A DNA stretch of 64,000 bases from Candidatus Zhuqueibacterota bacterium (GTDB lineage: Bacteria; Zhuqueibacterota; Zhuqueibacteria; Thermofontimicrobiales; Thermofontimicrobiaceae). Where the stretch lies: NCBI GenBank assembly GCA_034506395.1, contig JAPDPQ010000002.1:52255-116254 (forward strand), given 5' to 3'. Each line of letters starts with the position of its first letter. Position 1 is the first letter of the stretch. This document shows, in pieces, positions 4,299-20,936 of the stretch. Position numbers and translations under genes: made by a program. The notes beneath the pieces are model-generated. The model saw only the letters and a list, made by a program, of their open reading frames with translations, was not told the origin of the DNA and searched no databases.

Positions 4299-4510
4299 TT
4301 GATATTAAATCGCCTCGGCCATGATCTCCTTTTGCGCCATCGGAACAGAAGCTTATTGGAACGACATGCCTAAAGCAAGTGTCGGGGCGATTTTGAATAC
4401 GATCTGAAATGATTTATTTCCTCCGGTCGGATATGAGACTATTCTTGCCCAGCCGGAGGAAGTTTATTTTGAGCAAGTTCCTTAGGGGAAAATTGAGAAA
4501 GGCAGAAGTA

Positions 4511-5974
4511 ATGCAAGGAGAAATGACGAATTACAAAAGGATCTTGCTGGTCAATCCAGCGATCGACAAAGAGAAGAAATATGGCAAATTGGTCAGCATG
4601 ATGTTGACTCCATCGGTGCCATTGAGCATCGTTTTTTTGGGTACTTTTTTAGAAAGCCAGGGATACGAAGTCAGGCTATTTGATGAGCAGATCGAATGGC
4701 TGGATGAGCAACGCATTCAGGCGCTGGTGAATGAGTTTCACCCTGGCGTGATCGGTTTCACTTGTACCACCCCGGGGATGGCGCGCGCCCATGAGATCGC
4801 AGCCGATATTAAAAAGGTCAATCCAGAAATCAAAGTCGTGATGGGAAACATTCATCCGACTGTCCTGCCCGAGGAGACGCTTCGGGATGTCAATGTGGAT
4901 TTAGTGGTGCGCGGTGAGGGCGAGTTTACCATGCTGGAATATTTGCAAGCATTGGAGCATAAGGGGGACATCAGCAAAATAGATGGCATCTCGTATCGAC
5001 TCAATGGAGGGTATTATCATACTGGACAACGCGCCTATGAGAAAGATCTGGATGTATTTCCACCAGTCAATTGGAAGCTGTTGACGGATTTTCACAGCAG
5101 TTATGTGATCGAATGGATTCTCACGTCACGAGGCTGTCCGTACAAGTGCGTTTTTTGCTCAGCGCGCAGCATCTCCGGGTACAAATATCGCTTTAATAGT
5201 CCGCAGCGGGTGATCCACGAAGTGGATAATGTGGTCAATAATTATGGGGCAAGATTCTTCAGCTTCGCTGATGATAACTTTGTGGTGAAAAAAGATCGAG
5301 CCCGCCAAATTTGCAACCTGCTGATCGAGCGCGGCTATCATAAATATACCAAATGGTTGTGCCAGACCCGCGCAGATGCGGTGGATCAGCCCCTGCTGGA
5401 GCTAATGCGGGAGGCCGGCTGTGAATATATCAGCTTTGGCATCGAGACAGGCACACAGCGGCTATTGGATTTGATCGGGAAAAGCTTAAAGATCGAAACA
5501 ATCGAAAAAGCAGTGAATCTGGCGCATCAAGTGGGTATCAAGACGCGGGGATCGTTTATGCTCGGGTTGCCCACAGAGACGCGTGAGGAATCGCTGGCGA
5601 CCATTGACTTTGCACTTCGGCTGCCGCTCGATATTGCTAAATTCAATCTTGCAGTGCCATATCCGGGCACCGAATTGTTGAACATGGCCATTGCAGAGGG
5701 GCTTCAGGTAACCGGCGATTGGTCGAAAATCAATACCGCGGCTGGGCTGAGCGATACGCAAGCGTTCTATATCCCCAAAGGCCGCACCATGGCCGAACTG
5801 GCCAAACTGCAGAAGATGGCCCATGCCAAATTTTATCTGCGACCAAAGCAGATCTGGCGTATCCTCAAACGTGAGAATATCGATTTCAATCTGCCAAAAA
5901 TCAGATCGCCACGTCAATTCTTCGAGCTTATGGGGGCAGCCGCCGAATTTCTGGTGCATACCATCAAAAAATAA
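4511..5974 (+). CDS. B12-binding-domain radical SAM protein (class B radical-SAM family).
   Basis: The N-terminal 'KRILLVNP…' segment is a Rossmann-like B12-binding domain. The radical-SAM cysteine triad CxxxCxxC is present ('SRGCPYKCVFCSA'), followed by a long TIM-barrel-like region. The ORF opens at 4409, but the ATGs at 4511 and 4523 (after AAGGAG) are more plausible starts. Confidence 0.75.
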   Translation: MQGEMTNYKRILLVNPAIDKEKKYGKLVSMMLTPSVPLSIVFLGTFLESQGYEVRLFDEQIEWLDEQRIQALVNEFHPGVIGFTCTTPGMARAHEIAADIKKVNPEIKVVMGNIHPTVLPEETLRDVNVDLVVRGEGEFTMLEYLQALEHKGDISKIDGISYRLNGGYYHTGQRAYEKDLDVFPPVNWKLLTDFHSSYVIEWILTSRGCPYKCVFCSARSISGYKYRFNSPQRVIHEVDNVVNNYGARFFSFADDNFVVKKDRARQICNLLIERGYHKYTKWLCQTRADAVDQPLLELMREAGCEYISFGIETGTQRLLDLIGKSLKIETIEKAVNLAHQVGIKTRGSFMLGLPTETREESLATIDFALRLPLDIAKFNLAVPYPGTELLNMAIAEGLQVTGDWSKINTAAGLSDTQAFYIPKGRTMAELAKLQKMAHAKFYLRPKQIWRILKRENIDFNLPKIRSPRQFFELMGAAAEFLVHTIKK

Positions 5975-6379
5975 CTGGCTTCTCCCTCCGCAGCCTCGAC
6001 TATTTGATCGTATGTTAGGCAGTTAAGCCAACCGGCAGAAACCATATTCACCGCTGGGTGATCCGCTCTCATGATCGGATCGGTCTTGATCTACCGAGAG
6101 GTGGGAGTCGTATTCGATCGAAACAACAATCATTGAAGTTTGCTGGTTTCGCCGCCGCGGAGTAGCGGATCATGCAGAGTAAATTCGGTCAGGAAGCGAG
6201 ACACGCTTGCGGGGGATGCTGCGTCAATTTTAACAGGCTGTCCGAAAACTTTCGGATGTTAGGATAAAAACCAGCAACCAAATCAATACGGCCGAACGGA
6301 GAGCGGTTGGAAAAGTAGAATCGCCCTTTGCTACAAGAATGAGATGAATCAGTGATAGTTAAATTTTGTGGGGAGCATT

Positions 6380-9037
6380 ATGAAACGCTGCAGAGTAATT
6401 GGCATTGCTTTGAGCTGGTTGCTCAGTTGGTCGATGATGATATTCGGTCAAACGGAACCAATTGATTCAAATTCTGGGAGCATGATCCCAGTAGCATCAT
6501 TTTATGGTCGGGAATACATTGAGCGGATCGGCTACGCGGTGGCCGGAGCTGGAGATGTTAATGGGGATGGATTTGACGACTTTTTGATTGGCACCTTTCA
6601 CAACGCTGTGATGGGAGCCGACGCAGGGGCCGTTTATCTATTTTTGGGTCACCGCTATCTCCGCTGGACAATGAACGATACCGTCAATCATGCAGATGCT
6701 CGGCTGTTGGGCCAGCAAGCATATGATGCGGCTGGGTATTCGGTGGCTTGTAACGGCGACCTGAACGGCGATGGTCTGGACGATATGATCATCGGCGCTC
6801 CGGCTGGCAATGATAAGGTGCCTTATATGCCTGGACGGGTTTATATTTTGTTCGGCCGCAAAAAAGCCAATTGGGGCTATTATTTCCGCTTGTATGACAA
6901 TTGCGATGCGATTTATGAGGGCGAAGGCAATCAAGACCTCGCTGGTTTATCAGTAGCCTATATTGGCGATTTGAATGGTGATGGATATGATGATTTTTTG
7001 GTTGGTGCACCATTTCGTAATGGGAAGTATGTGGATCAGGGCCAGGTGTACCTCATTTTAGGGCGAGCCACGCCATGGCTTAAGACGGATTATTTAGCCT
7101 ACGCAGATGCGACATTTATTTACGAGGTAAGCAGTGCTAAAACTGGTTACTCAGTGGCGGGAATTGGAGATGTGAATGTCGATGGGATCCCAGATTTCGC
7201 AATAGGCGCTTATGGAGCCAGTCACGTGTTTGTCCTGTATGGACGACCCAAAGTCAATTGGGGGAAAAATTTTGATCTGGAAAATGCAGATGTGATAATC
7301 TATGGCGAGAACCGATGGTCGAAGGAAGGTGTGGGTTGGCGGGTAGCGGGGGGCAGTGATGTCAATGGCGATGGCATCTCCGATCTGTTGATCTCGGCCA
7401 CGCAAAATAGCGATCACGGAACTCGCTCTGGAATGGTCTATGTGTTGTTCGGCAAGAGAGGCGGCTGGGGCGTCTCGGAGATCTCTCTCAATAACGCCGA
7501 TGCCTCATATTATGGTGAGCAACCAGGCGACCAAGCCGGATGGGGATTGGCGATGGCCGGGGATGTCAATGGTGATGGTTTCGGCGATATCCTGGTTGGG
7601 ACTTATAAAGATGAAAATGGCCCAGTTAATGGTAAAGCCTATCTCATCAAAGGAAAAGCCTCTGGCTGGCAAAGAGATGTTTCCTTGACTACTGTGCCAG
7701 ATTTTTGTGAGCGAAGTCCTGAGGGCATTGGGTATGCGGTCGCTTCGGCCGGCGATTTTGACGCGGATGGCCTCGCCGATTATGTGATTAGCGCGCCGTT
7801 CAACAGCGACATACAAAAATGGAACGGCAAGGTATATCTGTTCACCAGCCAGGAGGTGCCCTATGAAATTTCAGGACAGGTGACCTATCATCGAACTGGC
7901 CAACCCATTCCTCAAGTGATGGTGAAATTGGATACGCTTGCTGTTGCCGCTGATACCACCGATGGACTGGGTCGCTATCAAATTTTAGTGCGCGGCAAGC
8001 ACGATCACACCGTTGCCATGGAAAAACTGATCAGAAGCGATCTGGGATCAGCCGTCAGCGCTTATGATGCGGCGTTGATCGCTCAAATGGCAGTGAAATT
8101 GTCTGTGCCCGATACCATCCATCGCGAAGCTGGTGATGTGAATAACGATGGCAAGGTCAGTATGTACGATGCCGCAAACACACTCCGCTGCGCCGTGCAA
8201 TTACCAGCATTGCCGAACACTTATGCTGGCCAATGGGTTTTTACCCCTTCCAGCATGACTTATGATTCCGTTACCCACCATTATTCAAACCAGAACTACG
8301 TTGGTTTTGTTAGAGGTGATGTGGACGGCAACTGGCGGGCGCCTGGCTCTGGGTTGGCAAAAAGCGAAGATGGTAGCACGGGGCTGCAATTTCAGGCTGT
8401 TGTCAATGGCGATGAGCTTCGGTTGCCCATAGAATTAAATTTCGATTTCTCCATGATCTCTTTCGATCTCCACATCAGCTATCCCCAAGCATTCTTAAAA
8501 TTGAAGGCGGTTGAACCTTCAACAAAGATCGCTAATTTTCAATTAGCTGTCAATTCTGAACTCAGCGGACAGGTGAAGGCGGCTGGCTTTGGCCTACAAT
8601 CTATTGTTGCCCATGGGCCTATTTTGGTTTTCGTTTTTGAAACGATCAAGCCGATCGATAACGCTTGCCAGCTTCAGATCGATCATTTTGCAGTGAATCA
8701 GCAATGTTTCGCTGCGAGGGTAAAGTTGGCGGGTGCTGAACCCTTATCTAATTTGCCGCAACGGTTCGAGCTCCTTCAAAATTATCCCAATCCCTTCAAT
8801 GGCACAACTCTCATACGATTTGCGGTTCCGCATACTGGTAAGATTCGATTGACCATTTATAATTTGCTTGGAGAAGAAGTGAATACACTGATCGATGAGA
8901 CGGTAGCGCCAGGCAAATATCATGTGAATTGGGATGGAAAAAATAGAAATGGAGCCGCTGTTGCCTCAGGAATTTACATTGCGAGAATGGACCATCCATC
9001 AGGATCGGAGCAGATTAAGCTCATCTATATGCAATAG
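6380..9037 (+). CDS. FG-GAP-repeat (integrin-alpha-like beta-propeller) T9SS cargo protein, paralog A. It has a signal peptide, about 7 FG-GAP blades, a CarboxypepD_reg-like domain, a dockerin-like double EF-hand, an internal cohesin-like module and a T9SS CTD.
   Basis: GGGGAG lies 4 nt upstream of the ATG at 6380, and the signal peptide is 'MKRCRVIGIALSWLLSWSMMIFGQ'. FG-GAP Ca-loop motifs recur ('GDVNGDGFDDFLIG', 'GDLNGDGLDDMIIGAP', 'GDVNVDGIPDFAIGA'…). The dockerin-like segment is 'SAYDAALIAQMAVKLS…GDVNNDGKVSMYDAANTLRCAVQL' (~8050-8215). The cohesin-like module 'LRLPIELNFDFSMISFDLHISYP…GQVKAAGFG…ILVFVFETIKPID' lies at ~8390-8740. The CTD is 'FELLQNYPNPFNGTTLIRFAVP…IYNLLGEEV'. Confidence 0.85.
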   Translation: MKRCRVIGIALSWLLSWSMMIFGQTEPIDSNSGSMIPVASFYGREYIERIGYAVAGAGDVNGDGFDDFLIGTFHNAVMGADAGAVYLFLGHRYLRWTMNDTVNHADARLLGQQAYDAAGYSVACNGDLNGDGLDDMIIGAPAGNDKVPYMPGRVYILFGRKKANWGYYFRLYDNCDAIYEGEGNQDLAGLSVAYIGDLNGDGYDDFLVGAPFRNGKYVDQGQVYLILGRATPWLKTDYLAYADATFIYEVSSAKTGYSVAGIGDVNVDGIPDFAIGAYGASHVFVLYGRPKVNWGKNFDLENADVIIYGENRWSKEGVGWRVAGGSDVNGDGISDLLISATQNSDHGTRSGMVYVLFGKRGGWGVSEISLNNADASYYGEQPGDQAGWGLAMAGDVNGDGFGDILVGTYKDENGPVNGKAYLIKGKASGWQRDVSLTTVPDFCERSPEGIGYAVASAGDFDADGLADYVISAPFNSDIQKWNGKVYLFTSQEVPYEISGQVTYHRTGQPIPQVMVKLDTLAVAADTTDGLGRYQILVRGKHDHTVAMEKLIRSDLGSAVSAYDAALIAQMAVKLSVPDTIHREAGDVNNDGKVSMYDAANTLRCAVQLPALPNTYAGQWVFTPSSMTYDSVTHHYSNQNYVGFVRGDVDGNWRAPGSGLAKSEDGSTGLQFQAVVNGDELRLPIELNFDFSMISFDLHISYPQAFLKLKAVEPSTKIANFQLAVNSELSGQVKAAGFGLQSIVAHGPILVFVFETIKPIDNACQLQIDHFAVNQQCFAARVKLAGAEPLSNLPQRFELLQNYPNPFNGTTLIRFAVPHTGKIRLTIYNLLGEEVNTLIDETVAPGKYHVNWDGKNRNGAAVASGIYIARMDHPSGSEQIKLIYMQ

Positions 9038-9049
9038 GGGGAGTAATTC

Positions 9050-11722
9050 ATGACTGGAAGAATTTGGTTTGAGAAGTATGTTTTGATACTTTTGATGAAC
9101 TTGATGCTGATCAAAGGCGTTGCGGGACAAAATGGAGATCAAGCGGTTTTGGGCCAGATTTATCCAGACGCAACCTTCATTTGCAAGAACGCCAACGAGC
9201 GGTGCGGCTATTCTATGGCCGGGGCTGGGGATGTCAATGGCGACGGGTTCAGCGATTTTATGGTAGCCGCATATCACAACTATCTTCACGGTTGGAATTC
9301 TGGTGGGGTGTATTTGATCACCGGCGCATTGAATCAGCGATGGGGAATGAATGTCGATATCGAAGCCGCAGCAACAGCAGTATTTCGAGGCAGCCAAGAT
9401 TACGATATGGTCGGTTATTGTGTGGCGGGCAAAGGCGATTTCAATGGCGATGGACTGAGCGATATGATTATCGGTGCGCCAGGCACCTGGGATCGAATGC
9501 CCGAAACTCCAGGATGGGCTTATCTGGTGTTTGGGAAAAAGGAAATGGATTGGGGCAAAGATTATCAATTGGAGGCCTCCGCCGATGTGAAAATCGTGGG
9601 CGAAAAGCCCCTGGATCAATTTGGCTATGCGGTCTCTTTCGTCGGTGACATCAATCATGATGGGTATGACGACATCATCTGTGGCGCACCTTATCGCAAT
9701 CAATATCAAAAATGGGATGGCAAGGCGTATTTAATTTTGGGTGCTGCCCAGGGTTGGGATGGCAATCATCTGGTGGCGAAAAAAGCCGTGGCATCTTTCG
9801 TGTTTCCAGCCGAACAAGCGTTGACCGGCTATTCGGTCGCTGGAGTGGGCGATGTGAATCAGGATGGCACACCAGATTTTGTGATTGGCGTGCCTGGAGC
9901 TAATGTCGCCTGTTTAATATTGGGTAGACCAGCCGTCGATTGGGGGCTCGATTTTGATCTGCGGAATGCTGACTCTAAATTCTGGGGCGAGGTTGATGGC
10001 GATTACGCCGGCTCATGGATCAGCGCAGCGAATGATGTTAACCATGATGGCTATCCAGATTTCATGATTTCAGCTATTCAGGCCTATTTCAATGGGGGCA
10101 AAATTTATGTGGTCTTAGGTAGAAAACGCTGGACTGAGAGCGATATCTCTTTGAAGACTGCCGACGCTTCGTTCCGAGGAGAGGACGTGGAGACGCATAC
10201 CGGCTTCTGTACCTCAGGATTGAAAGATTATGATGGTGATGGCTATGACGACCTATTAATCGGTGCTCGCTACCTTAATAGCATTGATATTCCACATGCC
10301 GGCAAAGTCTATGTGATCAAAGGTCGACCTGGTGGTTGGCAGCATGACGCCGATCTGGAAAATAGCGATTATTACTTCTGGGGGCCAGATTCCATTACGT
10401 GTGCTGGCTGGCAGGTGGCGGATGTGGGCGATGTGAATGGCGATCATGGTCATGATTTTATCGCCTCAGGACCATTTAACAGCACTGGTGCTCATTGGGG
10501 CGGAAAAATATTTTTCTTTTATGGCAAAGATATCGCTTATCATATCTCTGGAACAATTGTTTATTACTCCCATTTCCAGCCAATCTCTGATGCGAAATTG
10601 ACGGTCACTGGCAATGTGGCTGATAGCACTTTGAGCGACCGAATGGGCCGTTATTCTCTTTGGCTCAAGCCGAATGGGAATTATCGAATCGCCGCTACAA
10701 AAGCGGGTCCGATTGGGAATCAAGACTATGCGATTTCAGCCTATGACGCGGCAAGGGTAGCCAGCCATGCCATCGGAATAGATACGCTTTCAAATTGGTC
10801 CCGAAAAGCAGCCGATGTCGATCAAAATGGCGTAATTCAGATGTTCGATGCGGCGCAGATCGCCCGCTATGCTGTCGACCTTCCTGCACTGGAATCTTCT
10901 CATGTGGGCGAATTCCGTTTCGATCCAGAGAGCCGATGGTACTCCAATTTGGGACAATCCTTTCTGCAAGAAAATTTTATTGGGCTGCTATTGGGCGATG
11001 TAGATGGCAATTGGCAAACTCATACCACTATTGCAGCCAAAAATACTGGGAATTCGATATTGCCAAGTAGCATTGTCACGTTATTCAATTCGCGACCTTC
11101 GATCCCATTGACGATCAATGATTTCGCCAATGCCAGATCTGTCGATATCCAGTTCGAGTTTGATCCAACGCAACTGCAATTTCTTGAGCTTCACCGAACT
11201 GAGGTCACAAAAAATTTCTCATTGGTACTGAACGCTAATGTGCCAGGCTTGATAAAAATCGCTCTCTTTAGTGCGACTCCCGTGCACTTTCAGGGAGAGA
11301 TCGCTCGATTGCAATTTAAGCTTGTGAATTTGAATAACACTAATTTAGCCCGCCTGAAAATGACTGTAATTCGCGTCAATGATGTCCGATTCCCGCCTGA
11401 GGAGACATTAATTTTCATGGTTGACAAGAATGGCCTAAACATCGCAACAGAAGCAACATTGATCAGTCAGCCCAATCCATTTAATCCAAGCACCACTCTC
11501 ATCTTTAAAAATAATATGGCTGGTAAGGGGAAGCTGATGATCTATGATGTATTGGGAAAAGCGGTGCGCTGTTTTGATCTGGGATTTTTGCTGCCGGGCG
11601 TACATCAAGTGTTCTGGGACGGGGCGGACGACAGTGGCAACGAGCTATCCAGTGGCGTTTATTTCGCCAGATTTCAGTGCGATGCCAAGGAGAGCATAAT
11701 TAAATTGATCAAGCTAAAATAA
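9050..11722 (+). CDS. FG-GAP-repeat T9SS cargo protein, paralog B, with the same architecture as paralog A.
   Basis: It starts 12 nt after the stop of paralog A and follows GGGGGAG. The FG-GAP motifs are 'GDVNGDGFSDFMVAA', 'GDFNGDGLSDMIIGAP' and 'GDINHDGYDDIICGAP'. The dockerin-like segment is 'ISAYDAARVASHAIG…ADVDQNGVIQMFDAAQIARYAVDLP' (~10735-10890). The cohesin-like module 'SVDIQFEFDPTQLQFLELHRTEV…GLIKIALFS…GEIARLQFKLVNLN' lies at ~11060-11440. The CTD is 'ISQPNPFNPSTTLIF…IYDVLGKAV…SGVYFARF'. Confidence 0.85.
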   Translation: MTGRIWFEKYVLILLMNLMLIKGVAGQNGDQAVLGQIYPDATFICKNANERCGYSMAGAGDVNGDGFSDFMVAAYHNYLHGWNSGGVYLITGALNQRWGMNVDIEAAATAVFRGSQDYDMVGYCVAGKGDFNGDGLSDMIIGAPGTWDRMPETPGWAYLVFGKKEMDWGKDYQLEASADVKIVGEKPLDQFGYAVSFVGDINHDGYDDIICGAPYRNQYQKWDGKAYLILGAAQGWDGNHLVAKKAVASFVFPAEQALTGYSVAGVGDVNQDGTPDFVIGVPGANVACLILGRPAVDWGLDFDLRNADSKFWGEVDGDYAGSWISAANDVNHDGYPDFMISAIQAYFNGGKIYVVLGRKRWTESDISLKTADASFRGEDVETHTGFCTSGLKDYDGDGYDDLLIGARYLNSIDIPHAGKVYVIKGRPGGWQHDADLENSDYYFWGPDSITCAGWQVADVGDVNGDHGHDFIASGPFNSTGAHWGGKIFFFYGKDIAYHISGTIVYYSHFQPISDAKLTVTGNVADSTLSDRMGRYSLWLKPNGNYRIAATKAGPIGNQDYAISAYDAARVASHAIGIDTLSNWSRKAADVDQNGVIQMFDAAQIARYAVDLPALESSHVGEFRFDPESRWYSNLGQSFLQENFIGLLLGDVDGNWQTHTTIAAKNTGNSILPSSIVTLFNSRPSIPLTINDFANARSVDIQFEFDPTQLQFLELHRTEVTKNFSLVLNANVPGLIKIALFSATPVHFQGEIARLQFKLVNLNNTNLARLKMTVIRVNDVRFPPEETLIFMVDKNGLNIATEATLISQPNPFNPSTTLIFKNNMAGKGKLMIYDVLGKAVRCFDLGFLLPGVHQVFWDGADDSGNELSSGVYFARFQCDAKESIIKLIKLK

Positions 11723-11734
11723 CGAGGAGCAATC

Positions 11735-12523
11735 ATGCAAAGGTGGAAGCTTGGGCGTATTTTCGTGCTCAGCGCCATCATCATTGCATGGGGGATCAAT
11801 GATGGATTCGCGCAAGTCAAAGTTACAATCGCCGATGTTGCAGCGACGCCTAAAAGCACGGCCAGCGTGGCAATGTTGGTGAGCGATTTATCTAATTATG
11901 AGATCATTTCCTATCAATTTGAAATTTTGTATGATTCGCTGGTTGCTCGGGCGAAAGGGGTGGCAGTTGAAGGCACGATAACCGCGCCATGGGGCAGCCC
12001 CGCGGTCAATCTGGATAGCGCTGGCAGAATGCTCGTTGGCAATTTCGGGACGCGGCCGCTTTCGCCAGGCGATACACTGCTTAAACTCATCTTTGCGGTC
12101 GTCGGATTACCGGGCGATACGAGTACGATCATCCTAAAGGATTTTCAGTTCAACAATGGCAATCCCATGGCCCTATCGAAAAACGGGCGACTAAAAGTTC
12201 TATCGCCCAGCGGTGTGGCCCAGCCTTCGCCGATCGTACCGCGAAAAGCAATCTATCTCTCTAACTCGCCAGAGCCATTTTGCGACCGCACCACGATTCA
12301 AATGATTCAGCCTTCTCCAGGAGCAATCGATATTGAGATCTACAATGTACTTGGACAGCGGATCAAACGATTAGGAAACTTTGATTCAAATCGATCCTTG
12401 TTGGAGATCGACTGGGACGCGACCGACCAGCAAGGTGGACCAGTGCCGGCTGGCATCTATTTCTGTATGGTGAGACAATTCAATCGGATTCTGGCGGTTG
12501 ATCGGATGATATTCATCAAGTGA
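11735..12523 (+). CDS. Small secreted protein (262 aa) consisting of a signal peptide, a single cohesin-like domain and a T9SS CTD.
   Basis: GAGGAG lies 5 nt upstream of the ATG. The domain 'VKVTIADVAATPKSTASVAMLVSDLSNYEIISYQFEILYDSLVARAKGVAVEGTITAPWGSPAVNLDSAGRMLVGNFGTRPLSPGDTLLKLIFAVVGLPGDTSTIILKDFQFNNGNPMALSKNGRLKV' fits the cohesin beta-sandwich pattern (V.V.I..V.A..G..V.VPV….FxL.YD..VL…G….W…N…G.I..G…GxGxL..I.F.V.G..G..S.L….FN.G.P…NG.V). The CTD is 'PEPFCDRTTIQM…IEIYNVLGQRI…AGIYFCMV'. The gene is tightly coupled to both neighbours. Confidence 0.75.
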   Translation: MQRWKLGRIFVLSAIIIAWGINDGFAQVKVTIADVAATPKSTASVAMLVSDLSNYEIISYQFEILYDSLVARAKGVAVEGTITAPWGSPAVNLDSAGRMLVGNFGTRPLSPGDTLLKLIFAVVGLPGDTSTIILKDFQFNNGNPMALSKNGRLKVLSPSGVAQPSPIVPRKAIYLSNSPEPFCDRTTIQMIQPSPGAIDIEIYNVLGQRIKRLGNFDSNRSLLEIDWDATDQQGGPVPAGIYFCMVRQFNRILAVDRMIFIK

Positions 12524-12534
12524 TTGAGGAGATT

Positions 12535-14970
12535 ATGGTGCAATTACGATTTCTGATATTTGGTTTTATTTTGTCCATGATGGCAGCGATGACGCAGGCT
12601 CAGGTGCAAGTCACCTTGCCAGACACCACGGCAAATTGGAATAGCTCGGTGACCATCTCCATCCGCGTTAGCGATGTCACTGCTTATGGCATTTATTCAT
12701 ATGAGTTCATTTTAAATTATAATGCTCTTGTCTTAAAGCCTACGGCGGTCGATCATAATAATACGCTTGCTTCGAATTGGCAAAAACCAGAGGTGAATGA
12801 TTCAACCAAAGGTGTTTTGGTTATTGGTGGCTATGGAGCGAATAAGTTAGTGGGTAATGGCCGATTGGTCAATATGACATTTCAGGTGATCGGTCAACCC
12901 GATCAGGTGAGTGATTTGACATTTAGCTATTTTGCCTTCAATGATGGTAGGCCAACGCCAACATTGTCCAATGGTCGGGTGAAAGTCATCACCAATTTAG
13001 TACCGGTAACGATAACAACCAACGTACTATCTGGCACCGAGGTCGTGGTGGACGGGAGCTCGCATGCTGCGCCCTATAATACCTATTGGGAGAAAGGCAG
13101 CAGCCATCAGATCTCTGCGCCGGATCTGCAGACCATTGGAGATAGGCGATATAATTATCAGTCATGGAGTGATCAGGGGGCGCAAACTCATACCGTCTCA
13201 GTAACCCAACCAACTACATTTACCGCAAATTATAGCACCCAGTATCTGCTGACGATCCAGACAGCCCACGGCACGCCGCAGGGGAGCGGTTGGTATAATG
13301 CAGGTGCTGTGGCCAGTTTTTCCATCGATTCATCTCTTATTGAAAATGGGGATACAAAATATTTGTTTGTTTCTTGGACTGGCAGTGGCTCAGGTTGTTA
13401 TATTGGGCCGTTGCGCAAGGCATCCGTGGTCATGAATAACCCAATTGTCCAAACAGCGAATTGGTCAACTCAATATTACGTGGATATTCGCACTGATGTT
13501 GGCAAATCTTATGGAAGCGGATGGTATTCTCCAGGAGCGCTAGTGGCATTTGGCCTCGATTCCTCAACCATTATTCGATCGGATGCTCATTATCGATTCC
13601 AATCCTGGTCTGGAACTGGGCCCAATAGCTACTCCGGGACGAACCTTAGCGCCACAATCACTGTGGCTGGCCCAGTAGTCGAACAAGCAATTTGGGATAG
13701 CGAATTTTTATTGGTCACTGGTTCGCTTCCAGAGGGGGTGCTTCAAGTGCCTGGCGCTGGCTGGTACGCGAAAGGACAATCTTTTACGACTATTAAAGCC
13801 CCAGATCCATTGATTGTGAATCAGGTCAGTTATCGATTCAAGGGATGGAAAGTCAATGGGGCGATCGTCCCAGGCAATCCAGTGACGGTGGTGATGGACG
13901 GACCCAAAACAGTCATCGCTGATTACAGCAACGATATTACCGTGGTGGTAACCACCAATGTCGGATCAGGCACAAAGGTGATTGTTGATGGCGAAGAAAA
14001 AAATGCTCCATATACAGCCCAATGGATCGCAGGGACGCGACATGGCATTGGTGTCGTCAACGTTCAAAATGGTGCGCCAGGAGTCCGATATAGTTACGTC
14101 CGCTGGAGTCATGGCGGAAATCAGACCCAGGAAGTTGTCCCAACGATGAACACCACTTATATAGCTGAATTGGCGACCCAATATTATCTTGAAGTGACAG
14201 ATGAACCATCTGGGATCGCGAATCCAAAAGGCACTGGTTGGTACTTGGCTGGGCAGTTGGTCATCTTGGACAGTTTGATTCAAAATAAAATTGCGGGCCA
14301 AACCAGTTATCGTTTTATTAAATGGCAAATTGATGGAGCTGATAGCCTAAAAAAATCTGTGCGGCTAATGATGAGTCAGCCGCGTCAGGCGGTGGCAGTT
14401 TATCAGAAAGGCTTTTTTATCTCAGGTAATATCACTTTTGTGGGCAGCAATCCCAAGCCATTGACCTTGGAGGTTATTGGCGCAGAAAACTTCTCAGTGC
14501 GATCGGATAGCAATGGGTATTATGTGATCGCTGGACTGGTCAATGGGGATTATACAATTCGCCCTCGTCACCCTGCCTTCAACATTGAACCGAGCCAGCG
14601 GTCTTATAAAGTCAATCGCAATTTTGAAAATGAATACTATTTTGCCTTTTATATAACTGCGATTTCATCGCCAGAAGGGCCAACTCAGTCTCCAGATCGC
14701 TTTGAATTGTATCAAAATTATCCTAATCCAGTGGCAGATGAAACCGTGATCGAATATGCTGTAAAAGGATATGTTCCGATTCGAGTCGCAGTTTATAACA
14801 TCCTGGGTCAGGAGATCGCCCAACTTGTGGCAAATCGTCAGCCTGCTGGGCGCTATCGGGTGCAGTGGAATCGAACCGACAATCATGGGGCACGCGTGCC
14901 GCCGGGCATGTATTTCTATCGCATCGAAGCCCCCAATTTTGTCCAGATTCGAAAAATGATCGTGCTTTAG
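12535..14970 (+). CDS. T9SS cargo protein with an N-terminal cohesin-like domain, about six tandem ~100-aa Listeria/InlB-B-type bacterial repeat domains, a CarboxypepD_reg-like domain and a T9SS CTD.
   Basis: The ORF overlaps the previous stop (GTG at 12520). The ATG at 12535 follows GAGGAG, and the signal peptide is 'MVQLRFLIFGFILSMMAAMTQAQV'. The cohesin-like segment is 'VQVTLPDTTANWNSSVTISIRVSDVTAYGIYSYEFILNYNALVLKP…GRLVNMTFQVIGQPDQVSDLTFSYFAFNDGRPTPTLSNGRVKV'. Repeats recur of the form 'TQYYL.I…G.GSGWY..G..V.F..D……Y.F.SWSG.G'. 'GNITFVGSNPKPLTLEVIG…SDSNGYYVIAGLVNGDYTIRP' is CarbopepD_reg-like. The CTD is 'FELYQNYPNPVADETVIEY…VYNILGQEI'. Confidence 0.8.
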   Translation: MVQLRFLIFGFILSMMAAMTQAQVQVTLPDTTANWNSSVTISIRVSDVTAYGIYSYEFILNYNALVLKPTAVDHNNTLASNWQKPEVNDSTKGVLVIGGYGANKLVGNGRLVNMTFQVIGQPDQVSDLTFSYFAFNDGRPTPTLSNGRVKVITNLVPVTITTNVLSGTEVVVDGSSHAAPYNTYWEKGSSHQISAPDLQTIGDRRYNYQSWSDQGAQTHTVSVTQPTTFTANYSTQYLLTIQTAHGTPQGSGWYNAGAVASFSIDSSLIENGDTKYLFVSWTGSGSGCYIGPLRKASVVMNNPIVQTANWSTQYYVDIRTDVGKSYGSGWYSPGALVAFGLDSSTIIRSDAHYRFQSWSGTGPNSYSGTNLSATITVAGPVVEQAIWDSEFLLVTGSLPEGVLQVPGAGWYAKGQSFTTIKAPDPLIVNQVSYRFKGWKVNGAIVPGNPVTVVMDGPKTVIADYSNDITVVVTTNVGSGTKVIVDGEEKNAPYTAQWIAGTRHGIGVVNVQNGAPGVRYSYVRWSHGGNQTQEVVPTMNTTYIAELATQYYLEVTDEPSGIANPKGTGWYLAGQLVILDSLIQNKIAGQTSYRFIKWQIDGADSLKKSVRLMMSQPRQAVAVYQKGFFISGNITFVGSNPKPLTLEVIGAENFSVRSDSNGYYVIAGLVNGDYTIRPRHPAFNIEPSQRSYKVNRNFENEYYFAFYITAISSPEGPTQSPDRFELYQNYPNPVADETVIEYAVKGYVPIRVAVYNILGQEIAQLVANRQPAGRYRVQWNRTDNHGARVPPGMYFYRIEAPNFVQIRKMIVL

Positions 14971-15311
14971 CTGAAAGCTCGAAACCACAGGCGGTTGATA
15001 TTGGGCCTGATCTTCATTCCGTGGAAGCGCTCGTGAATGATATTTGGATTGCTCCATGTTATAGATCATGATGAGGCAAGAATTTTTAAATGAGGGGATG
15101 CTCAATTTTCCTTCCGCAAGTTTTGAACATGATCTACGGGAGCAGCGGCTGAGATTTAGGGGATTTTGATTTGTATTAAAATTGTAGCGTTCATTGTTGC
15201 TGCCTTCTATTATTCTACTATGATGAAATTGAGTTAAAAAAAGCTGTTCAAATTCTCTTTGGTTTCACCAGGGAGAATAAATAAATCGGTGTGAGATGGG
15301 GGAGCTCATCC

Positions 15312-17987
15312 ATGTGGCACTGCGATGTTAGCAGAAGATTTGCAATCACCATTTTCGGGATGCAGTTGGTATTAGGAATCACAAATGGATATGGCCAAAC
15401 TGAAATTGCAAGTCCAATGACCAAGTTGACGCCTTCTGCGGCATTTTTGGGTGAATTTTATTATGAACGGGTGGGATATTACATGGAAAATGCCGGGGAT
15501 GTCAACGGAGATGGGTGCGAGGACTTCCTGATCGGTACGTTTCATAATCGGGAAAATGGATATGATGCAGGAGCGGCTTACCTGATCCTGGGTAATAGAA
15601 ATAATATCTGGGGGATGAAGCAGCGATTGAGGACCGCAGACGCTCGTTTTTTGGGGAAACATGAGTATGATGCGTTCGGATATTATGTTTCAGGCAATGG
15701 CGATGCGAATGGCGATGGCTATGATGATTTTTTGATTGGCGCGCCGGCTGGTAATGAATTGGGAGGGCCCAACCCCGGGTATGCGTTTCTGTTTTTGGGA
15801 AAAGCGACAGCGGATTGGGGTTTCGATTGCGTGGCGCGGGATGCCGCTGATGCCTACTGGATGGGAAGCCATGCTTACGATCATGTGGGCCAGGCTGTTG
15901 CCATGCTCGGTGACATCAATGGTGATGGTTTTGATGATTTTCTCATCGGCGCGCCATTGAACGATGACGGTTCGGAAGAGAGCGGGAAGGCCTATTTATT
16001 TTTAGGCAAGGCCTCTGGTTGGCGACGCGGCGCTGATATTGAAGCTGCTGCAAATGCCAGTTTCATCTGTCAATATTATAAAGCGTGGGCTGGCTATACA
16101 GTTTCTTCCGCTGGGGACATGAATGGGGATGGAATGGCTGATTTTTTAATTGGTGCGCCGTTTCTCGATCGATGGGGAGGCCGAGTTTACCTGTTTTTTG
16201 GCCGAAAAAAGGCCGATTGGGGTGCCAATTTCGATCTTGACCAAGCGGATGTAATTTTCCAAGGTGAAAACTACGGCGATAAAGCTGGCTGGAGCTTGGC
16301 TTCCGCTGGGGACGTCAATGGGGATGGCCTGAGCGATATCCTGATTGGAGCCTACGGAAATGATCACCAAGCAGCCCAAGCCGGAAAGGTTTATTTGATT
16401 CTGGGCCGAAAATCGAATTGGCAGCGGATCGTTCAACTGAACGAGGCAGAGGCCTCCTGGTATGGGGAAAGAATAGATGATCAAGCTGGCTGGAGTGCGG
16501 CAAGCGTCCCAGATCTAAATTATGATGGATGCGATGAAATATTGATCGGCGCGTGGCATAATGATCAAATCGGAGACAACTGCGGCAAAGCTTATTTGAT
16601 CTATGGTAAGCCGAGCGGTTGGCAAACGGATCAAAGTTTGGCTGGAGTGACAGATTATTTTGTTGGTGAATATGATGGCGATTACGCTGGCTATTGTGTG
16701 ACTGGCAACGATGCCAATGGCGATGGGCTGGGAGACATCTGGATTTCTGCAGCCTATAATAGCGATAGCCAGGAGCATGCGGGAAAGGTGTATTTGTTTT
16801 TAAGCGAACGCGATCGTTACGACATCAGTGGGCAAATCCGTTATTATAGCAACGGTGAACCAGTACCAGGGGTACAAATCAATATTTTGGGAGGCACCCG
16901 AAGCTGGCTCGTAAGTGATACCAATGGACTGTTTAGCCAGATATTGCCCCACCACATAGATTATTATTTCGTCCCATGCAAAGCATCTTACAGCGATTTG
17001 AATAGTGAGACCATTATCGCCTATGATGCTGCATTGACGCTGCAAGTTGCTGTCGAAAAATTGCCTTTGGATAGTTTGCAATGGCTGGCTGCCAATGCCG
17101 ATCAAGACAGCTTCATCACCGCGTATGATGCAGCATTGATCGCGCGATACGTCGTTGGCTATCGAGATTCGAACTCGGCGGTTGGAAAATGGGTCTTTTC
17201 CCCGACACAACGCACCATTCACGATCTTGCCCAGGAACACCATCGATTAGATTTTTCCGCCATTGTGGTTGGCAATGTGCATGGCGGTTGGCAGCCATTC
17301 ATGGGGGACTCCCTGCCGCGAACTTTGGCGAGCCTCCCATTGCCCCAAGCACAGCGCCAGGGCAAACGGGTAATCATCCCGTTCGAGATTGAACAGCCGA
17401 TGGAGTTGTCTTCGCTAGAAATTCAATTAGCCTTGCCATCCGATCGGTTTTCCGTAGTAGATGTTCAGCTTGGTTCTATGTTAAGTCGTTTTCAATGGAT
17501 TTGCAATCAACAAAAAAGCCAAATCAAATTAGTGCTATATTCTGCTCATCAAACCACAGCAATCGGTGAGCTGGTCAGTTTGGTACTTGAACCGGACAAC
17601 GATAGCCCTGATTTCGATCATGTTGAATTGATAAAGTATCAAATCAATGACTTCCCTTCGGTTCGAGGCATGATTGAGCTTAGATCCCCGATTGAGCCCA
17701 TGTCACCAAAAAATTTCGCTCTGCACCAGAACTACCCTAATCCATTCAATTCTGAAACAGCGATTCGACTATCTGTCTCTCGGAATTGTAAGATTCATTT
17801 GGCCATCTATAATTTGCGGGGCGATTTGGTGCGGCTACTGGAAGATAAGTCCCTAGCGCCAGGCAATTACCAGTTTGTCTGGAATGGAAGGGATCAAAAT
17901 CAGATTCCACTTGCTTCTGGAGTCTATCTATGCCGGGCAATTGCAGGACAAGAACTACAGACGGTGAAACTCATAATGATTAAATAG
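15312..17987 (+). CDS. FG-GAP-repeat T9SS cargo protein, paralog C (FG-GAP blades, dockerin-like segment, internal cohesin-like module, T9SS CTD).
   Basis: GGGGGAG lies 7 nt upstream of the ATG at 15312, and the signal peptide is 'MWHCDVSRRFAITIFGMQLVLGITNGYGQ'. The FG-GAP motifs are 'GDVNGDGCEDFLIG', 'GDANGDGYDDFLIGAP', 'GDINGDGFDDFLIGAP' and 'GDMNGDGMADFLIGAP'. The dockerin-like segment is 'IAYDAALTLQVAVEKLP…NADQDSFITAYDAALIARYVVGY' (~17010-17165). The cohesin-like module lies at ~17370-17690. The CTD is 'FALHQNYPNPFNSETAIRLSV…IYNLRGDLV…SGVYLCRA'. Confidence 0.85.
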   Translation: MWHCDVSRRFAITIFGMQLVLGITNGYGQTEIASPMTKLTPSAAFLGEFYYERVGYYMENAGDVNGDGCEDFLIGTFHNRENGYDAGAAYLILGNRNNIWGMKQRLRTADARFLGKHEYDAFGYYVSGNGDANGDGYDDFLIGAPAGNELGGPNPGYAFLFLGKATADWGFDCVARDAADAYWMGSHAYDHVGQAVAMLGDINGDGFDDFLIGAPLNDDGSEESGKAYLFLGKASGWRRGADIEAAANASFICQYYKAWAGYTVSSAGDMNGDGMADFLIGAPFLDRWGGRVYLFFGRKKADWGANFDLDQADVIFQGENYGDKAGWSLASAGDVNGDGLSDILIGAYGNDHQAAQAGKVYLILGRKSNWQRIVQLNEAEASWYGERIDDQAGWSAASVPDLNYDGCDEILIGAWHNDQIGDNCGKAYLIYGKPSGWQTDQSLAGVTDYFVGEYDGDYAGYCVTGNDANGDGLGDIWISAAYNSDSQEHAGKVYLFLSERDRYDISGQIRYYSNGEPVPGVQINILGGTRSWLVSDTNGLFSQILPHHIDYYFVPCKASYSDLNSETIIAYDAALTLQVAVEKLPLDSLQWLAANADQDSFITAYDAALIARYVVGYRDSNSAVGKWVFSPTQRTIHDLAQEHHRLDFSAIVVGNVHGGWQPFMGDSLPRTLASLPLPQAQRQGKRVIIPFEIEQPMELSSLEIQLALPSDRFSVVDVQLGSMLSRFQWICNQQKSQIKLVLYSAHQTTAIGELVSLVLEPDNDSPDFDHVELIKYQINDFPSVRGMIELRSPIEPMSPKNFALHQNYPNPFNSETAIRLSVSRNCKIHLAIYNLRGDLVRLLEDKSLAPGNYQFVWNGRDQNQIPLASGVYLCRAIAGQELQTVKLIMIK

Positions 17988-18096
17988 CCAGATGTCGCCG
18001 GGCAAAAGAAGATATTTCCTGAATTCTATGGGAAAACACTTAAAAGTATGATATCTGGAAAAATTTTGGTTCGTAACTTAACTTGAGGATCGCATC

Positions 18097-20850
18097 ATGT
18101 ATGGCAGCAGAATTCTTATGATACTGTTATTTTGGGCTACCATAGCAGCGCCGCTATTGGCTGAAGTAACAGTGACTATTCCTGACACAACGGCGTATCC
18201 AGAAGATACTTTATTTGTTCCAATCAAATTATCCGACGTGACTGGTCTGGAAGTCTATTCCTATGAGTTTCGGATGAAATTTGATCCCAAAGTTGTTCAA
18301 TTCATCCGCGTAGACTCGACCAAAACCCTGACTGAGACGTGGGGCAAAACCTGGCTCAATACCGAATCGGTCGGGGAAATCAGGGTGGGAAATTACAACG
18401 TGACGCCCCTCCAAAATGCTGGAGTGCTGATTTATCTTGGTTTTAAGATGTTGGGCAAAATTGATGATTCGAGCCAATTTGTCGCCCAGGATTTTACCTT
18501 TAATGCGGGTCAACCAACAGTCGAACTCAAAAATGGGTCGGTGAAAATCCTGCATCCTCCTATCAGCGTTCGATTTCGGTCCAATGTGGCAGTGACCATC
18601 AAAATTCTGCTCGACAGCCATGAAAAGAAGCTGCCCTTCGATACGAGCTGGGCATATGGCTCAAGTCATACGATCGGGACAATTTCTCCGCAGTACTTCT
18701 CTTCTGATACGCGTTATAGCTTTCAAAGCTGGAGCGATGGAAAAACAATGTCTCATACCGTTAGCCCAATTTCGGACACCACTTTTACGCTGTTCATGGA
18801 TGAGGAATTCTTGCTAACGCTCCAATCGAGATATGGGACTCCGACCGGGGGAGGCTGGTACCTCCGCGGCAAAAACGCGACCTTTTCTGTCGATTCGGTG
18901 GCGCAACAAACCGATAGCACCCGCTACGTCTTTGCTCAATGGTCAGGGGTCGGAGCGAGCAGCTATAGCGGAACGCAACGCACAGTCACGATTATCATGA
19001 ACAGCCCGGTAATAGAGAGCGCCCAATGGACTCAACAGTATTATTTAGCCATTCGATCGAATATTGGAACTCCGATTGGCCAAGGATGGCATAACCAGGG
19101 CGACGCGGTTACGATATCCATCGATTCTTTGGTTACGCCCATTGCTGGCACCCGCTATATTTTCAGTTCCTGGACAGGAATCGGATCTGGCAGTTACACC
19201 GGTGCTCAGCGGAAAGTATCGGTGACCATGCTCGCACCAATCGTTCAAAAAGCCAATTGGCAAACCGAGCATTACTTGAAAATCAAATCCTCACCAGAAC
19301 AGATCGTTCAGTTCAAACAATCTGGCTGGTATGCGAAGAACAGTCTGGTATCGACCGATAAAGCGTTAGAAAGTGTAAGTTCTCCAGGAATAATTTATCG
19401 TTTCAAGCAATGGAAACTGGATCAGAAAGAGCTACCTGGGAATCCAATTCAAGTCACCATGGATACGTCGCACATAGCGGAAGCAGTCTACCAAATTGAT
19501 AGCGTTTTGGTGAATATCACCACCTCCATTGGCACGGGCAGTTTCATTACCGTGGATGGCAATCGACATCCAGTGCCATATTGGGATTGGTGGCAATTTC
19601 AGTCGAGGCATCATATCGACATCGATTCCATTCAACTGGCAGCGAATCAGAAAACGCGATACGTATTCAAATCATGGAGTGATCGAGGGGCGCGAAATCA
19701 TACTGTAGTCGCAGATACGGGGTTTCAATTAATTGCTGCTCTGGCTAGTCAGCACTTGCTCCGGATTGATACTCATCCTCCAGGGCTCATTCAATTTGCC
19801 GAAAATGGCTGGTATGATCAGGGGAGTTCGGTCAACATCCCGGCGGTTCCTTTGCAGTTCGATATCGGTCAGGAGAAGTTGAATTTTAAAGGATGGTACC
19901 TGGATCGACATTGGATCGGCGGGGAGCTCCGTCAAATTTTAATGGATCGACCCCATTCAGCCATTGCAGCTTACAAAGAGCTCCTATCAGTTAAAGGAAA
20001 AATTTTGAATCGCCGCGGTCAAATAGTGCCAAACATCAAAGTAATACTTTCTGGGGCTGCAGACGATACGGTGATCGTTGCAGATGGTGAATATGCGTTC
20101 GAAATGCTTTCTGTGGGAGTTTATCAGATTGCGCCGCAATCTGCTGGTTTTTGTTTCGAACCACCTGCGCGATCCTATCTGCCTTTATCCGAAAGCCTCT
20201 TCGAACAAAATTTTATTGCTATCGATACCTTAAAACCCCAGGTCCAGCTCATTTATCCCAATGGAGGGGAACGGCTGGTGGCAGCCTCGACTGATACCAT
20301 CAAATGGCTGGCAGCCGACAATTTTGGGATCGATTCGATCCGCATAGATTTAAGCAGCGATCATGGGCAATCCTGGTTGAATATCATCAAATTCGATAGC
20401 TCAAAATTTTCAAGCTATGCCTGGACCATTCCGAATCTTTCCAGCGATCGTTGTCTCCTTCGCATCACGGTAAAAGATTTTGACACGAATGAGGCAGAAG
20501 ACCTCAGCGATGGGATGTTTACCATCACGCCTAAATCGGCAGTGAATGATGACGGGAGCCTTGTGATACCCACAACCTTTGCGGTACACCAAAATTATCC
20601 CAATCCATTCAACAATGCAACTCAAATTCGCTTCCAACTGCCTGTTGCAGCTCAGGTTCAGATCAAAATTTTTAACACGAAGGGTCAAATGGTTGCTACC
20701 ATAGTCGATCGAAATTTTGATGCTGGGTATCATCAAATTGATTGGAATGGGAGAGATCAATTTGGTCATGAGCTGTCATCGGGTATTTATTTCTATCAGA
20801 TCCAAGCTGGGGAACAGGTTGTGATGCGCAGAATGGTATTATTACGCTGA
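18097..20850 (+). CDS. Paralog of the 12535..14970 gene. It has an N-terminal cohesin-like domain, tandem Listeria/InlB-B-type repeats, a CarboxypepD_reg-like domain, a small Ig-like beta-sandwich and a T9SS CTD.
   Basis: GAGGAT lies upstream of the ATG, and the signal peptide is 'MYGSRILMILLFWATIAAPLLAEV'. The cohesin-like segment is 'VTVTIPDTTAYPEDTLFVPIKLSDVTGLEVYSYEFRMKFDPKVVQFIRV…GVLIYLGFKMLGKIDDSSQFVAQDFTFNAGQPTVELKNGSVKI'. The repeats contain 'G.GWY..G' and 'Y.F..WS'. The CTD is 'FAVHQNYPNPFNNATQIRFQLP…IFNTKGQMV…SGIYFYQIQA'. A rho-independent terminator follows. Confidence 0.8.
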   Translation: MYGSRILMILLFWATIAAPLLAEVTVTIPDTTAYPEDTLFVPIKLSDVTGLEVYSYEFRMKFDPKVVQFIRVDSTKTLTETWGKTWLNTESVGEIRVGNYNVTPLQNAGVLIYLGFKMLGKIDDSSQFVAQDFTFNAGQPTVELKNGSVKILHPPISVRFRSNVAVTIKILLDSHEKKLPFDTSWAYGSSHTIGTISPQYFSSDTRYSFQSWSDGKTMSHTVSPISDTTFTLFMDEEFLLTLQSRYGTPTGGGWYLRGKNATFSVDSVAQQTDSTRYVFAQWSGVGASSYSGTQRTVTIIMNSPVIESAQWTQQYYLAIRSNIGTPIGQGWHNQGDAVTISIDSLVTPIAGTRYIFSSWTGIGSGSYTGAQRKVSVTMLAPIVQKANWQTEHYLKIKSSPEQIVQFKQSGWYAKNSLVSTDKALESVSSPGIIYRFKQWKLDQKELPGNPIQVTMDTSHIAEAVYQIDSVLVNITTSIGTGSFITVDGNRHPVPYWDWWQFQSRHHIDIDSIQLAANQKTRYVFKSWSDRGARNHTVVADTGFQLIAALASQHLLRIDTHPPGLIQFAENGWYDQGSSVNIPAVPLQFDIGQEKLNFKGWYLDRHWIGGELRQILMDRPHSAIAAYKELLSVKGKILNRRGQIVPNIKVILSGAADDTVIVADGEYAFEMLSVGVYQIAPQSAGFCFEPPARSYLPLSESLFEQNFIAIDTLKPQVQLIYPNGGERLVAASTDTIKWLAADNFGIDSIRIDLSSDHGQSWLNIIKFDSSKFSSYAWTIPNLSSDRCLLRITVKDFDTNEAEDLSDGMFTITPKSAVNDDGSLVIPTTFAVHQNYPNPFNNATQIRFQLPVAAQVQIKIFNTKGQMVATIVDRNFDAGYHQIDWNGRDQFGHELSSGIYFYQIQAGEQVVMRRMVLLR

Positions 20851-20936
20851 GAGATGCCCTTAATTTTTGCTGAGCAATTGAATTGCAACTTTTGATTCCT
20901 ATAGCGCAACTGCATCGATTCGAGTGAATCGGCAAA

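Follow-up and report, generated by a model that had tools for sequence, protein, structure and literature searches.

To our knowledge, experimental work on the pairing of cohesins with dockerins comes almost exclusively from Gram-positive cellulosomes and amylosomes. The single-cohesin proteins of Ruminococcus flavefaciens include the anchor ScaE, the adaptor cohesin ScaC and the standalone cohesin ScaG (PMC5301203). ScaE, built from a signal peptide, a single cohesin, a short stalk and a sortase-type C-terminal signal for covalent surface attachment (PMC5301203), is joined to peptidoglycan of its Gram-positive host through LPXTG; its cohesin, of type III with extra flaps, takes up the X-dockerins of ScaB and CttA within a cellulosome. 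In Clostridium thermocellum, OlpA and OlpC expose a single type I cohesin on the cell surface and bind dockerin-bearing proteins directly, held by a non-covalent SLH anchor in a cellulosomal setting. A scaffoldin that combines cohesins with a C-terminal sorting domain (CTD) of type IX secretion systems (T9SS) has been proposed in silico as a means of surface attachment in ‘Candidatus Stygibacter’ of the Cloacimonadota (Williams et al. 2021, PMC8542988). Here, we describe cohesin and dockerin modules joined to type IX secretion signals in the diderm, uncultured phylum KSB1, now Candidatus Zhuqueibacterota, of the Fibrobacteres-Chlorobi-Bacteroidetes (FCB) group. The element in question is a gene for a 262-amino acid (aa) protein at positions 11735 to 12523 of a stretch of 64,000 nucleotides (nt), which as a whole is called the window.

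We propose, with a probability of roughly 45%, that this small protein is a secreted single-cohesin receptor at the cell surface, and that its likely partner is the dockerin-like module of a co-encoded FG-GAP protein, in the first place FG-GAP protein B (fgB), whose gene lies directly upstream. The initial annotation had read the protein as signal peptide, single cohesin-like domain, short linker and T9SS CTD, and this layout was borne out by structure prediction, by the TIGR04183 family model and by the orthologs. Its parts are as follows.

11735..12523, + strand: coding sequence of the 262-aa protein with cohesin and T9SS CTD (exact match at NCBI; 13 orthologs aligned end to end)
11724..11729, + strand: Shine-Dalgarno-like GAGGAG in the 12-nt gap before ATG 11735 (read from the sequence)
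11735..11812, + strand: Sec signal peptide, residues 1-26, predicted cleavage A26/Q27 (GFA/Q) (sequence inspection)
11813..12205, + strand: cohesin module, residues 27-157, predicted type-I-like nine-strand beta sandwich (AlphaFold2, Foldseek, Pfam)
12206..12259, + strand: Pro-rich linker, residues 158-175, 18 aa, SPSGVAQPSPIVPRKAIY (variable alignment columns; low model confidence)
12260..12520, + strand: T9SS type A C-terminal sorting domain, residues 176-262 (TIGR04183)

Structure prediction identifies the central module as a type-I-like cohesin. The full-length AlphaFold2 (AF2) model, made from the 13-ortholog alignment, was poor, with a predicted local distance difference test (pLDDT) score of 52, and was left out of the fold search. 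A domain-only model of residues 26-160 was used instead; made from a more diverse alignment of 19 sequences, it reached a pLDDT of 95.6 and a predicted template modelling (pTM) score of 0.89 and has the canonical nine-strand order of cohesins. With this model, Foldseek returned 84 PDB matches at E <= 0.001, and statements on fold matches here cover the best 50 of these, all 50 of which are cohesins. At the top are type I cohesins whose structures were determined together with dockerins (TM-scores of 0.78-0.81), among them C. acetobutylicum CohA2 (E 2.9e-10), A. cellulolyticus ScaB Coh6, a C. cellulolyticum cohesin and C. thermocellum OlpA. Cohesins of types II and III come lower than those of type I, ScaE for example with a TM-score of 0.71. 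The listed matches include the surface anchors OlpA (3ul4, TM-score 0.80), OlpC (4dh2) and ScaE (2zf9), and OlpA and OlpC are also weak sequence matches of the small protein, at an identity of only about 17%. At the sequence level, the Pfam Cohesin family (PF00963) matches 12 of the 13 orthologs (best E 2.3e-8). The module also shares 34-37% identity with the cohesins found at the N-termini of three larger neighbours, whose Pfam Cohesin scores are 46.9, 45.3 and 31.2 bits; the identity is 34% to the 811-aa paralog and 37% over 134 aa to the 917-aa paralog (BLASTP, E 7e-26). A carbohydrate-binding module or a transthyretin-like fold, which the initial annotation had named as the assignments that would speak against it, was ruled out, as no such Pfam match was found and the 50 listed Foldseek matches leave only cohesins.

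The sequences on either side of the cohesin are those of a T9SS cargo protein. The signal peptide has a basic n-region, a hydrophobic core and small residues at -3 and -1, as judged by inspection only; the full-length AF2 model places a helix at residues 3-15, and Q27 is invariant across the 13 orthologs. With no Cys near the cleavage site, a reading as a lipoprotein was ruled out. Residues 142-183, which include the linker, have a pLDDT below 50 in the full-length model. With TIGR04183, the NCBIfam model of the type A sorting domain, which has a cut-off of 23, the CTD scores 24.3 bits across residues 179-248 of the 262, and it contains the motifs NSPEPF, GIYFC and a terminal IFIK. The Pfam families FlgD_ig, CHU_C and Por_Secre_tail match the CTD of the small protein and its orthologs, with Por_Secre_tail found in nine of the 13 orthologs. 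Across the small-protein family, the CTD (12260-12520) is slightly atypical, with (N/Y)(S/Y)PEPF in place of NYPNPF, an invariant Cys244 within GIYFC and an invariant VDRM near the end; these atypical motifs may be the reason for its weak Pfam scores.

The gene is conserved. It is an open reading frame on the + strand with an ATG start and a TGA stop at 12521-12523, and the opposite strand across 11735..12523 has no open frame and is full of stop codons. NCBI holds the identical protein four times, as ‘T9SS type A sorting domain-containing protein [candidate division KSB1 bacterium]’. Another 12 homologs, 257-264 aa in length and at 86% to 47% identity, align with it end to end, which argues for a conserved gene rather than a chance open reading frame, and 59 columns of the 13-sequence alignment are invariant. 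The persistence of full-length orthologs down to 47% identity suggests purifying selection.

The order of the surrounding genes is kept in three other assemblies, in which the small protein is 65% (locus L001), 51% (L002/L003) and 48% (L006) identical to that of the window. The conserved order is a giant Big_1 gene, a B12-binding radical SAM gene, two FG-GAP genes, the small cohesin gene, cohesin-810, a third FG-GAP gene, cohesin-916 and a further cohesin protein. Distances between the small gene and its two neighbours are as follows.

Window: second FG-GAP gene to small gene, 12 nt; small gene to next gene, 11 nt
L001: second FG-GAP gene to small gene, 14 nt; small gene to next gene, 11 nt
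L002: second FG-GAP gene to small gene, 9 nt; small gene to next gene, 226 nt
L006: second FG-GAP gene to small gene, 9 nt; small gene to next gene, 287 nt

The gap of 9-14 nt between FG-GAP gene and small gene in all four syntenic loci points to co-expression of the small protein with that FG-GAP protein. In the window, the gap is exactly 12 nt (11723-11734), following the TAA stop of the FG-GAP gene at 11720-11722. The initial annotation had given the two junctions as 12 nt and overlapping; the 12-nt distance stands, and the overlap probably does not. An overlap, of 4 nt, requires GTG 12520 as the start of the next gene. In the same frame, ATG 12535 follows a GAGGAG, opens an ordinary signal peptide (MVQLRFLIFGF...) and puts the two genes 11 nt apart, and the L001 ortholog of that gene is likewise called with an 11-nt gap. 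The overlap was therefore dropped in favour of ATG 12535 as the better start, and is probably an artefact of start-codon choice.

The small gene belongs to a run of eight T9SS cargo genes on the same strand (57-23829), together with one gene for a B12-binding radical SAM enzyme; the rest of the window consists of housekeeping genes. The cohesin and FG-GAP neighbours are as follows.

6368..9037, + strand: FG-GAP protein A (fgA), 889 aa; dockerin-like module 8027-8335, cassette cohesin 8336-8773, CTD
9050..11722, + strand: fgB, 890 aa, directly upstream of the small gene; propeller, CarboxypepD_reg-like domain, dockerin-like module 10706-11014, divergent cohesin 11015-11458, CTD 11459-11719
12535..14970, + strand: paralog of 811 aa from ATG 12535; N-terminal cohesin, variable middle, CTD (Pfam Cohesin 46.9 bits, TIGR04183 41 bits)
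15291..17987, + strand: FG-GAP protein C (fgC), 898 aa; more degenerate dockerin-like module 16986-17291, cassette cohesin 17292-17723, CTD
18097..20850, + strand: paralog of 917 aa; N-terminal cohesin, variable middle, CTD (Pfam Cohesin 45.3 bits)
21277..23829, + strand: paralog of about 850 aa from ATG 21277; N-terminal cohesin, PKD domain, CTD (Pfam Cohesin 31.2 bits)

The candidate partners are the three FG-GAP proteins, the only proteins of the cluster with dockerin-like motifs. In each, a seven-bladed FG-GAP propeller is followed by a composite tail, which runs from a CarboxypepD_reg-like domain through a dockerin-like element with two xYDAA helices and the motif GDVDGNW to a divergent cohesin and the CTD. 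The initial annotation had called these neighbours dockerin-bearing, and the assignment of the tail elements as dockerins appears reasonably solid from several comparisons. Pfam Dockerin_1 (PF00404; cut-off 22.9) scores 26.8 bits in fgB and 22.9 bits in fgA; fgC is without a match and is homologous by alignment. For fgB, the scores with FG-GAP and Cohesin are 124.8 and 20.2 bits. Both xYDAA helices are conserved across orthologs, and fgA has a canonical Ca-binding loop, DVNNDGKVSMYD, at residue 590. A profile of the dockerin segments retrieved 15 PDB sequences at E < 1, of which those that could be identified are dockerins or dockerin-bearing proteins; the best E-values are 3.6e-5, for R. bromii Amy16, and 2.7e-4, for the dockerin of A. 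cellulolyticus ScaB. The cohesins of the FG-GAP tails are in turn related to the N-terminal cohesin family, with a probability of 97.3% and E 1.7e-11 in a profile-profile comparison by hhalign.

In Porphyromonas and Flavobacterium, T9SS cargo is exported by Sec and directed across the outer membrane by its CTD, which the PorU sortase removes, with possible attachment of the cargo to anionic lipopolysaccharide (LPS). The small protein would likewise be exported by Sec, with cleavage by signal peptidase I at A26/Q27, and would then cross the outer membrane through a T9SS. A PorU-type sortase would remove the CTD and, by analogy with Porphyromonas gingivalis, may join the new C-terminus to anionic LPS. 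The mature product of about 145 aa (Q27 to about residue 170) would be a bare cohesin on a stalk of approximately 15-20 residues at the cell surface. There, it would bind the dockerin-like module of an FG-GAP propeller protein, with fgB, encoded 12 nt upstream, as the first candidate, and would keep this protein in place or organise it at the surface. For a protein made up of a cohesin only, there is hardly any function but the binding of a partner, and fgB is the most likely partner because of the gene coupling. The case for FG-GAP docking is circumstantial, and comes from this coupling and from small cohesin-CTD genes that lie beside dockerin cassettes in two other lineages.

The small protein thus has the layout of ScaE, with a T9SS CTD in place of LPXTG, a diderm FCB host, a type-I-like rather than a type III cohesin, and candidate FG-GAP partners that have CTDs of their own and no carbohydrate-active enzymes (CAZymes). 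It resembles OlpA and OlpC in having a single cohesin, type-I-like here and type I there, and ScaG in being small and essentially one cohesin; ScaG, in contrast, lacks a T9SS CTD, has a type III cohesin and has been proposed to serve in transient retention rather than anchoring. The initial annotation had argued that the smallest cohesin proteins of cellulosomes are the surface anchors, which holds for ScaE but not for the adaptor ScaC or the standalone ScaG (PMC5301203). Scans with Pfam and TIGR models found neither SLH nor LPXTG in the small protein, the C-terminal module being a T9SS CTD. With no SLH or LPXTG, with dockerin-bearing neighbours that are neither scaffoldins nor CAZymes, and with no cellulosome context, the protein falls outside the class of cellulosome anchoring scaffoldins (ScaE, SdbA, OlpA-C), and its T9SS CTD is best regarded as analogous to an LPXTG or SLH anchor. 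The closest parallel in host and sorting signal is ‘Ca. Stygibacter’, also of the FCB group, in which a cohesin protein with a T9SS CTD was inferred to tether a cohesin-dockerin assembly; both cases are in silico only. That scaffoldin has 3,755 aa, many cohesins and carbohydrate-binding modules and dockerin-bearing hydrolases as partners in a cellulosome-like arrangement, compared to one cohesin in 262 aa here and non-enzymatic candidate FG-GAP partners that each carry a dockerin and a cohesin. Our literature search found no paper linking KSB1 or Zhuqueibacterota with T9SS, cohesin or dockerin, and none combining FG-GAP with cohesin and dockerin. The idea of a CTD-anchored cohesin scaffoldin having been proposed for Cloacimonadota, what would be new here is a minimal cohesin displayed by means of a T9SS tail in a non-cellulosomal, probably adhesive cluster.

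Several observations weigh against the proposed role. fgA, fgB and fgC each have their own T9SS CTD, as does every cohesin or FG-GAP protein of the cluster, so the FG-GAP proteins would need no anchor unless the cargo is set free once it has been secreted. Right after its dockerin, each of the three also has a cohesin of its own; counted together with the small protein and the N-terminal cohesins of the three larger paralogs, this makes seven cohesins in the cluster against three dockerins. Of the two Ca-binding loops in each FG-GAP dockerin, the first is degenerate and only the second canonical, and the dockerin appears to be inserted within the CarboxypepD_reg-like domain rather than free-standing. 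The Pfam Cohesin score of the small protein itself (18.2 bits, E 0.0029, residues 28-132) lies below the gathering cut-off of 24.1. No glycoside hydrolase was found above Pfam threshold in the cluster, and no T9SS machinery genes (SprA/Sov, PorU, PorV and others) were found within the 64-kb window, in which the eight CTD-bearing genes nevertheless indicate that a T9SS exists. The proposal of an anchoring unit, as first put forward, therefore fares unevenly, since its domain reading stands and the anchor role is weakened by the partners’ own CTDs and cohesins and by seven sockets for three plugs. The FG-GAP partner proteins look like adhesins rather than enzymes, and the cluster is probably adhesive.

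One alternative interpretation is that the small protein is not a stable membrane anchor but a released or transient standalone cohesin that acts on the FG-GAP dockerins as a cap, shuttle or competitor. In this role, it would govern which of two pairings these dockerins enter, one with the cassette cohesins of the FG-GAP proteins themselves and the other with the N-terminal cohesins of the larger paralogs. We consider this unlikely. Several Bacteroidota release their T9SS type A cargo instead of anchoring it, and the excess of cohesins over dockerins in the cluster makes competition plausible. A precedent exists in R. flavefaciens, where ScaG coexists with the true anchor ScaE and weakly binds some of the same dockerins (PMC5301203), and the ScaG structure (4n2o) is among the listed fold matches. 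However, the CTD of the small protein is conserved and canonical enough to be recognised by TIGR04183, the very short linker fits a role close to the membrane, and there is no sign of release.

Alternatively, the cohesin fold may be put to another use, either in binding some other ligand (a glycan, LPS or a protein that is not a dockerin) or as a structural or secretion-helper module, the small protein being a free-standing copy of a ‘cohesin-CTD’ tail. This seems to us improbable to a similar degree. It would fit the colinearity of small proteins with the cohesin and CTD end of their upstream neighbours, which amounts to 22% identity between the small protein of the window and fgB (E 5e-6), and to 38% (E 2e-43) and 30% for the homologs P0175 and P0178; the small proteins thus look like free-standing copies of the tail without its dockerin, which suggests duplication of a tail cassette. 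The listed fold matches also contain cohesin-like modules from outside cellulosomes, for example those of C. perfringens (2jh2, 2vo8). Ten positions are conserved in the small-protein orthologs and differ in the three paralog groups (I58, Q61, E79, F104, D113, T114, I132, N141, L153 and G160); both sheets contain some of them, with no clear clustering on the dockerin-binding sheet, and at 3-4 sequences per paralog group nothing firm emerges for that face. Against this interpretation, the solved structures nearest to the model, among the matches listed, are all dockerin binders. In addition, dockerin homologs always lie beside cohesins in the cassettes, and the metagenome protein P0015 joins a member of this cohesin subfamily to a canonical dockerin; both speak for the pairing of cohesin and dockerin as what selection has maintained.

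That the gene is a non-functional remnant of a partial duplication, or a miscalled open reading frame, might be suggested by its small size, its sub-threshold domain scores and its place between large paralogous genes, but is highly improbable and effectively refuted by conservation, given 13 full-length orthologs with no truncation, the 59 invariant columns, the conserved position and length (262-264 aa) and the gene’s own Shine-Dalgarno-like site.

If the small cohesin does dock its neighbours, as we propose, this would show how T9SS cargo becomes organised into defined surface complexes. It would also provide a minimal cohesin-dockerin pair (about 145 aa and about 100 aa) that might serve in surface display in Bacteroidota-like hosts. 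If there is no binding, many ‘cohesin’ annotations on T9SS proteins of the FCB group need another explanation.

Small proteins of this kind are found well beyond the syntenic loci. A word-indexed search with four cohesins of the window returned 6 proteins only, and an exhaustive HMMER search was needed to see the family: among 1.84 billion representative proteins, 417 matched at E <= 1e-30, including at least 14 other clusters of proteins of 249-282 aa with the same full-length layout. In a further search, small proteins with a cohesin and a sorting tail were named from Zixibacteria, and the relatives named from KSB1, Calditrichaeota, Ignavibacteriaceae and Gemmatimonadota are fragments or longer forms. 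Small cohesin-CTD proteins, the architecture for whose orthologs the initial annotation had suggested a search in other FCB-group genomes with a T9SS, are common in FCB-group metagenomes. A scan of GTDB genomes with the 13-ortholog alignment found no orthologs and two CTD-level matches (in Zixibacteria and Ignavibacteriales), the search patterns being derived from the CTD.

The genomic contexts of these homologs partly resemble that of the window. In three of the four contexts examined, the small gene lies downstream of a large T9SS cargo gene, at 20 nt (P0175), 61 nt (P0180) and 100 nt (P0178), and the cargo ends in a tail of two xYDAS helices, GDVSGNW, a cohesin and a CTD. The payloads of these cargo proteins are GIFT/DUF4350-like in two cases and an S8 peptidase in one. 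The fourth context, that of the small homolog P0188 from Zixibacteria, has no such cargo neighbour, which again counts against docking to a coupled partner. From the stand-alone cohesin-CTD proteins and the recurrence of a tail of dockerin-like element, GDVxGNW, cohesin and CTD on unrelated T9SS cargo (FG-GAP propellers, S8 peptidase and GIFT/DUF4350-type proteins), we speculate that a T9SS-dependent, non-cellulosomal surface assembly could be widespread in the FCB group. In such an assembly, cargo would be chained plug to socket, with an LPS-linked small cohesin that lacks a dockerin as the base or the terminator of the chain. We consider this broader scheme unlikely.

The composite tail itself has a recurrent structure. 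It was found on unrelated T9SS cargo at 8027-9034, 10706-11719 and 16986-17984 of the window and at L008:3847-7980, L009:207-2945 and L010:3-3647. The Pfam match to the CarboxypepD_reg-like domain in these tails always ends at about position 53-58 of 82, and the dockerin resembles an insertion into a beta-sandwich, with xYDAA or xYDAS occurring twice and GDV(D/S)GNW after it. The GDVDGN that trails the dockerin-like element looks like a canonical dockerin’s first Ca-binding loop.

The same cohesin subfamily also occurs in other architectures. P0020, P0022 and P0023 are scaffoldin-like proteins of 2,100-2,700 aa in which, according to Pfam, 8-10 cohesins alternate with Fn3 or Pur_ac_phosph_N-like domains; they have three CarboxypepD_reg domains, and two of the three (P0020 and P0022) end in a CTD-like FlgD_ig domain. 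P0015 and P0016, both from metagenomes, have about 200 aa and are made up of three parts: a signal peptide, a cohesin with 39% identity to the one in the small protein (43.9 bits with Pfam Cohesin), and a canonical dockerin with two loops (33.6 bits with Dockerin_1). As minimal proteins with both a cohesin and a dockerin, they could polymerise with themselves.

Among the seven cohesin and FG-GAP proteins of the cluster (6368-23829), six have a Gln directly after the predicted signal peptidase site (A/Q or G/Q) and the seventh has a Glu. Such a ‘Q-rule’ has been described for Bacteroidetes (PMC10653852), and the N-termini of the cluster suggest that it extends to KSB1. The starts of the mechanically called open reading frames at 6368, 12520, 15291 and 21217 are probably too far upstream. 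Better starts are ATG 6380 (fgA), 12535 (the 811-aa cohesin protein), 15312 (fgC) and 21277 (the cohesin protein of about 850 aa), and the NCBI fragment P0014 begins at 21277 (MKTIKHKL).

The sole trace of a glycoside hydrolase in the cluster is a GH43-like match of 18 bits, against a cut-off of 32.2, at residues ~193-310 of the 811-aa protein (12535-14970), and probably reflects a beta-propeller. The gene for the B12-binding radical SAM enzyme, a cytoplasmic protein, lies at 4409-5974, between the giant adhesin-like Big_1 gene and the first FG-GAP gene, and keeps the same position in L001, L002/L003 and L006.

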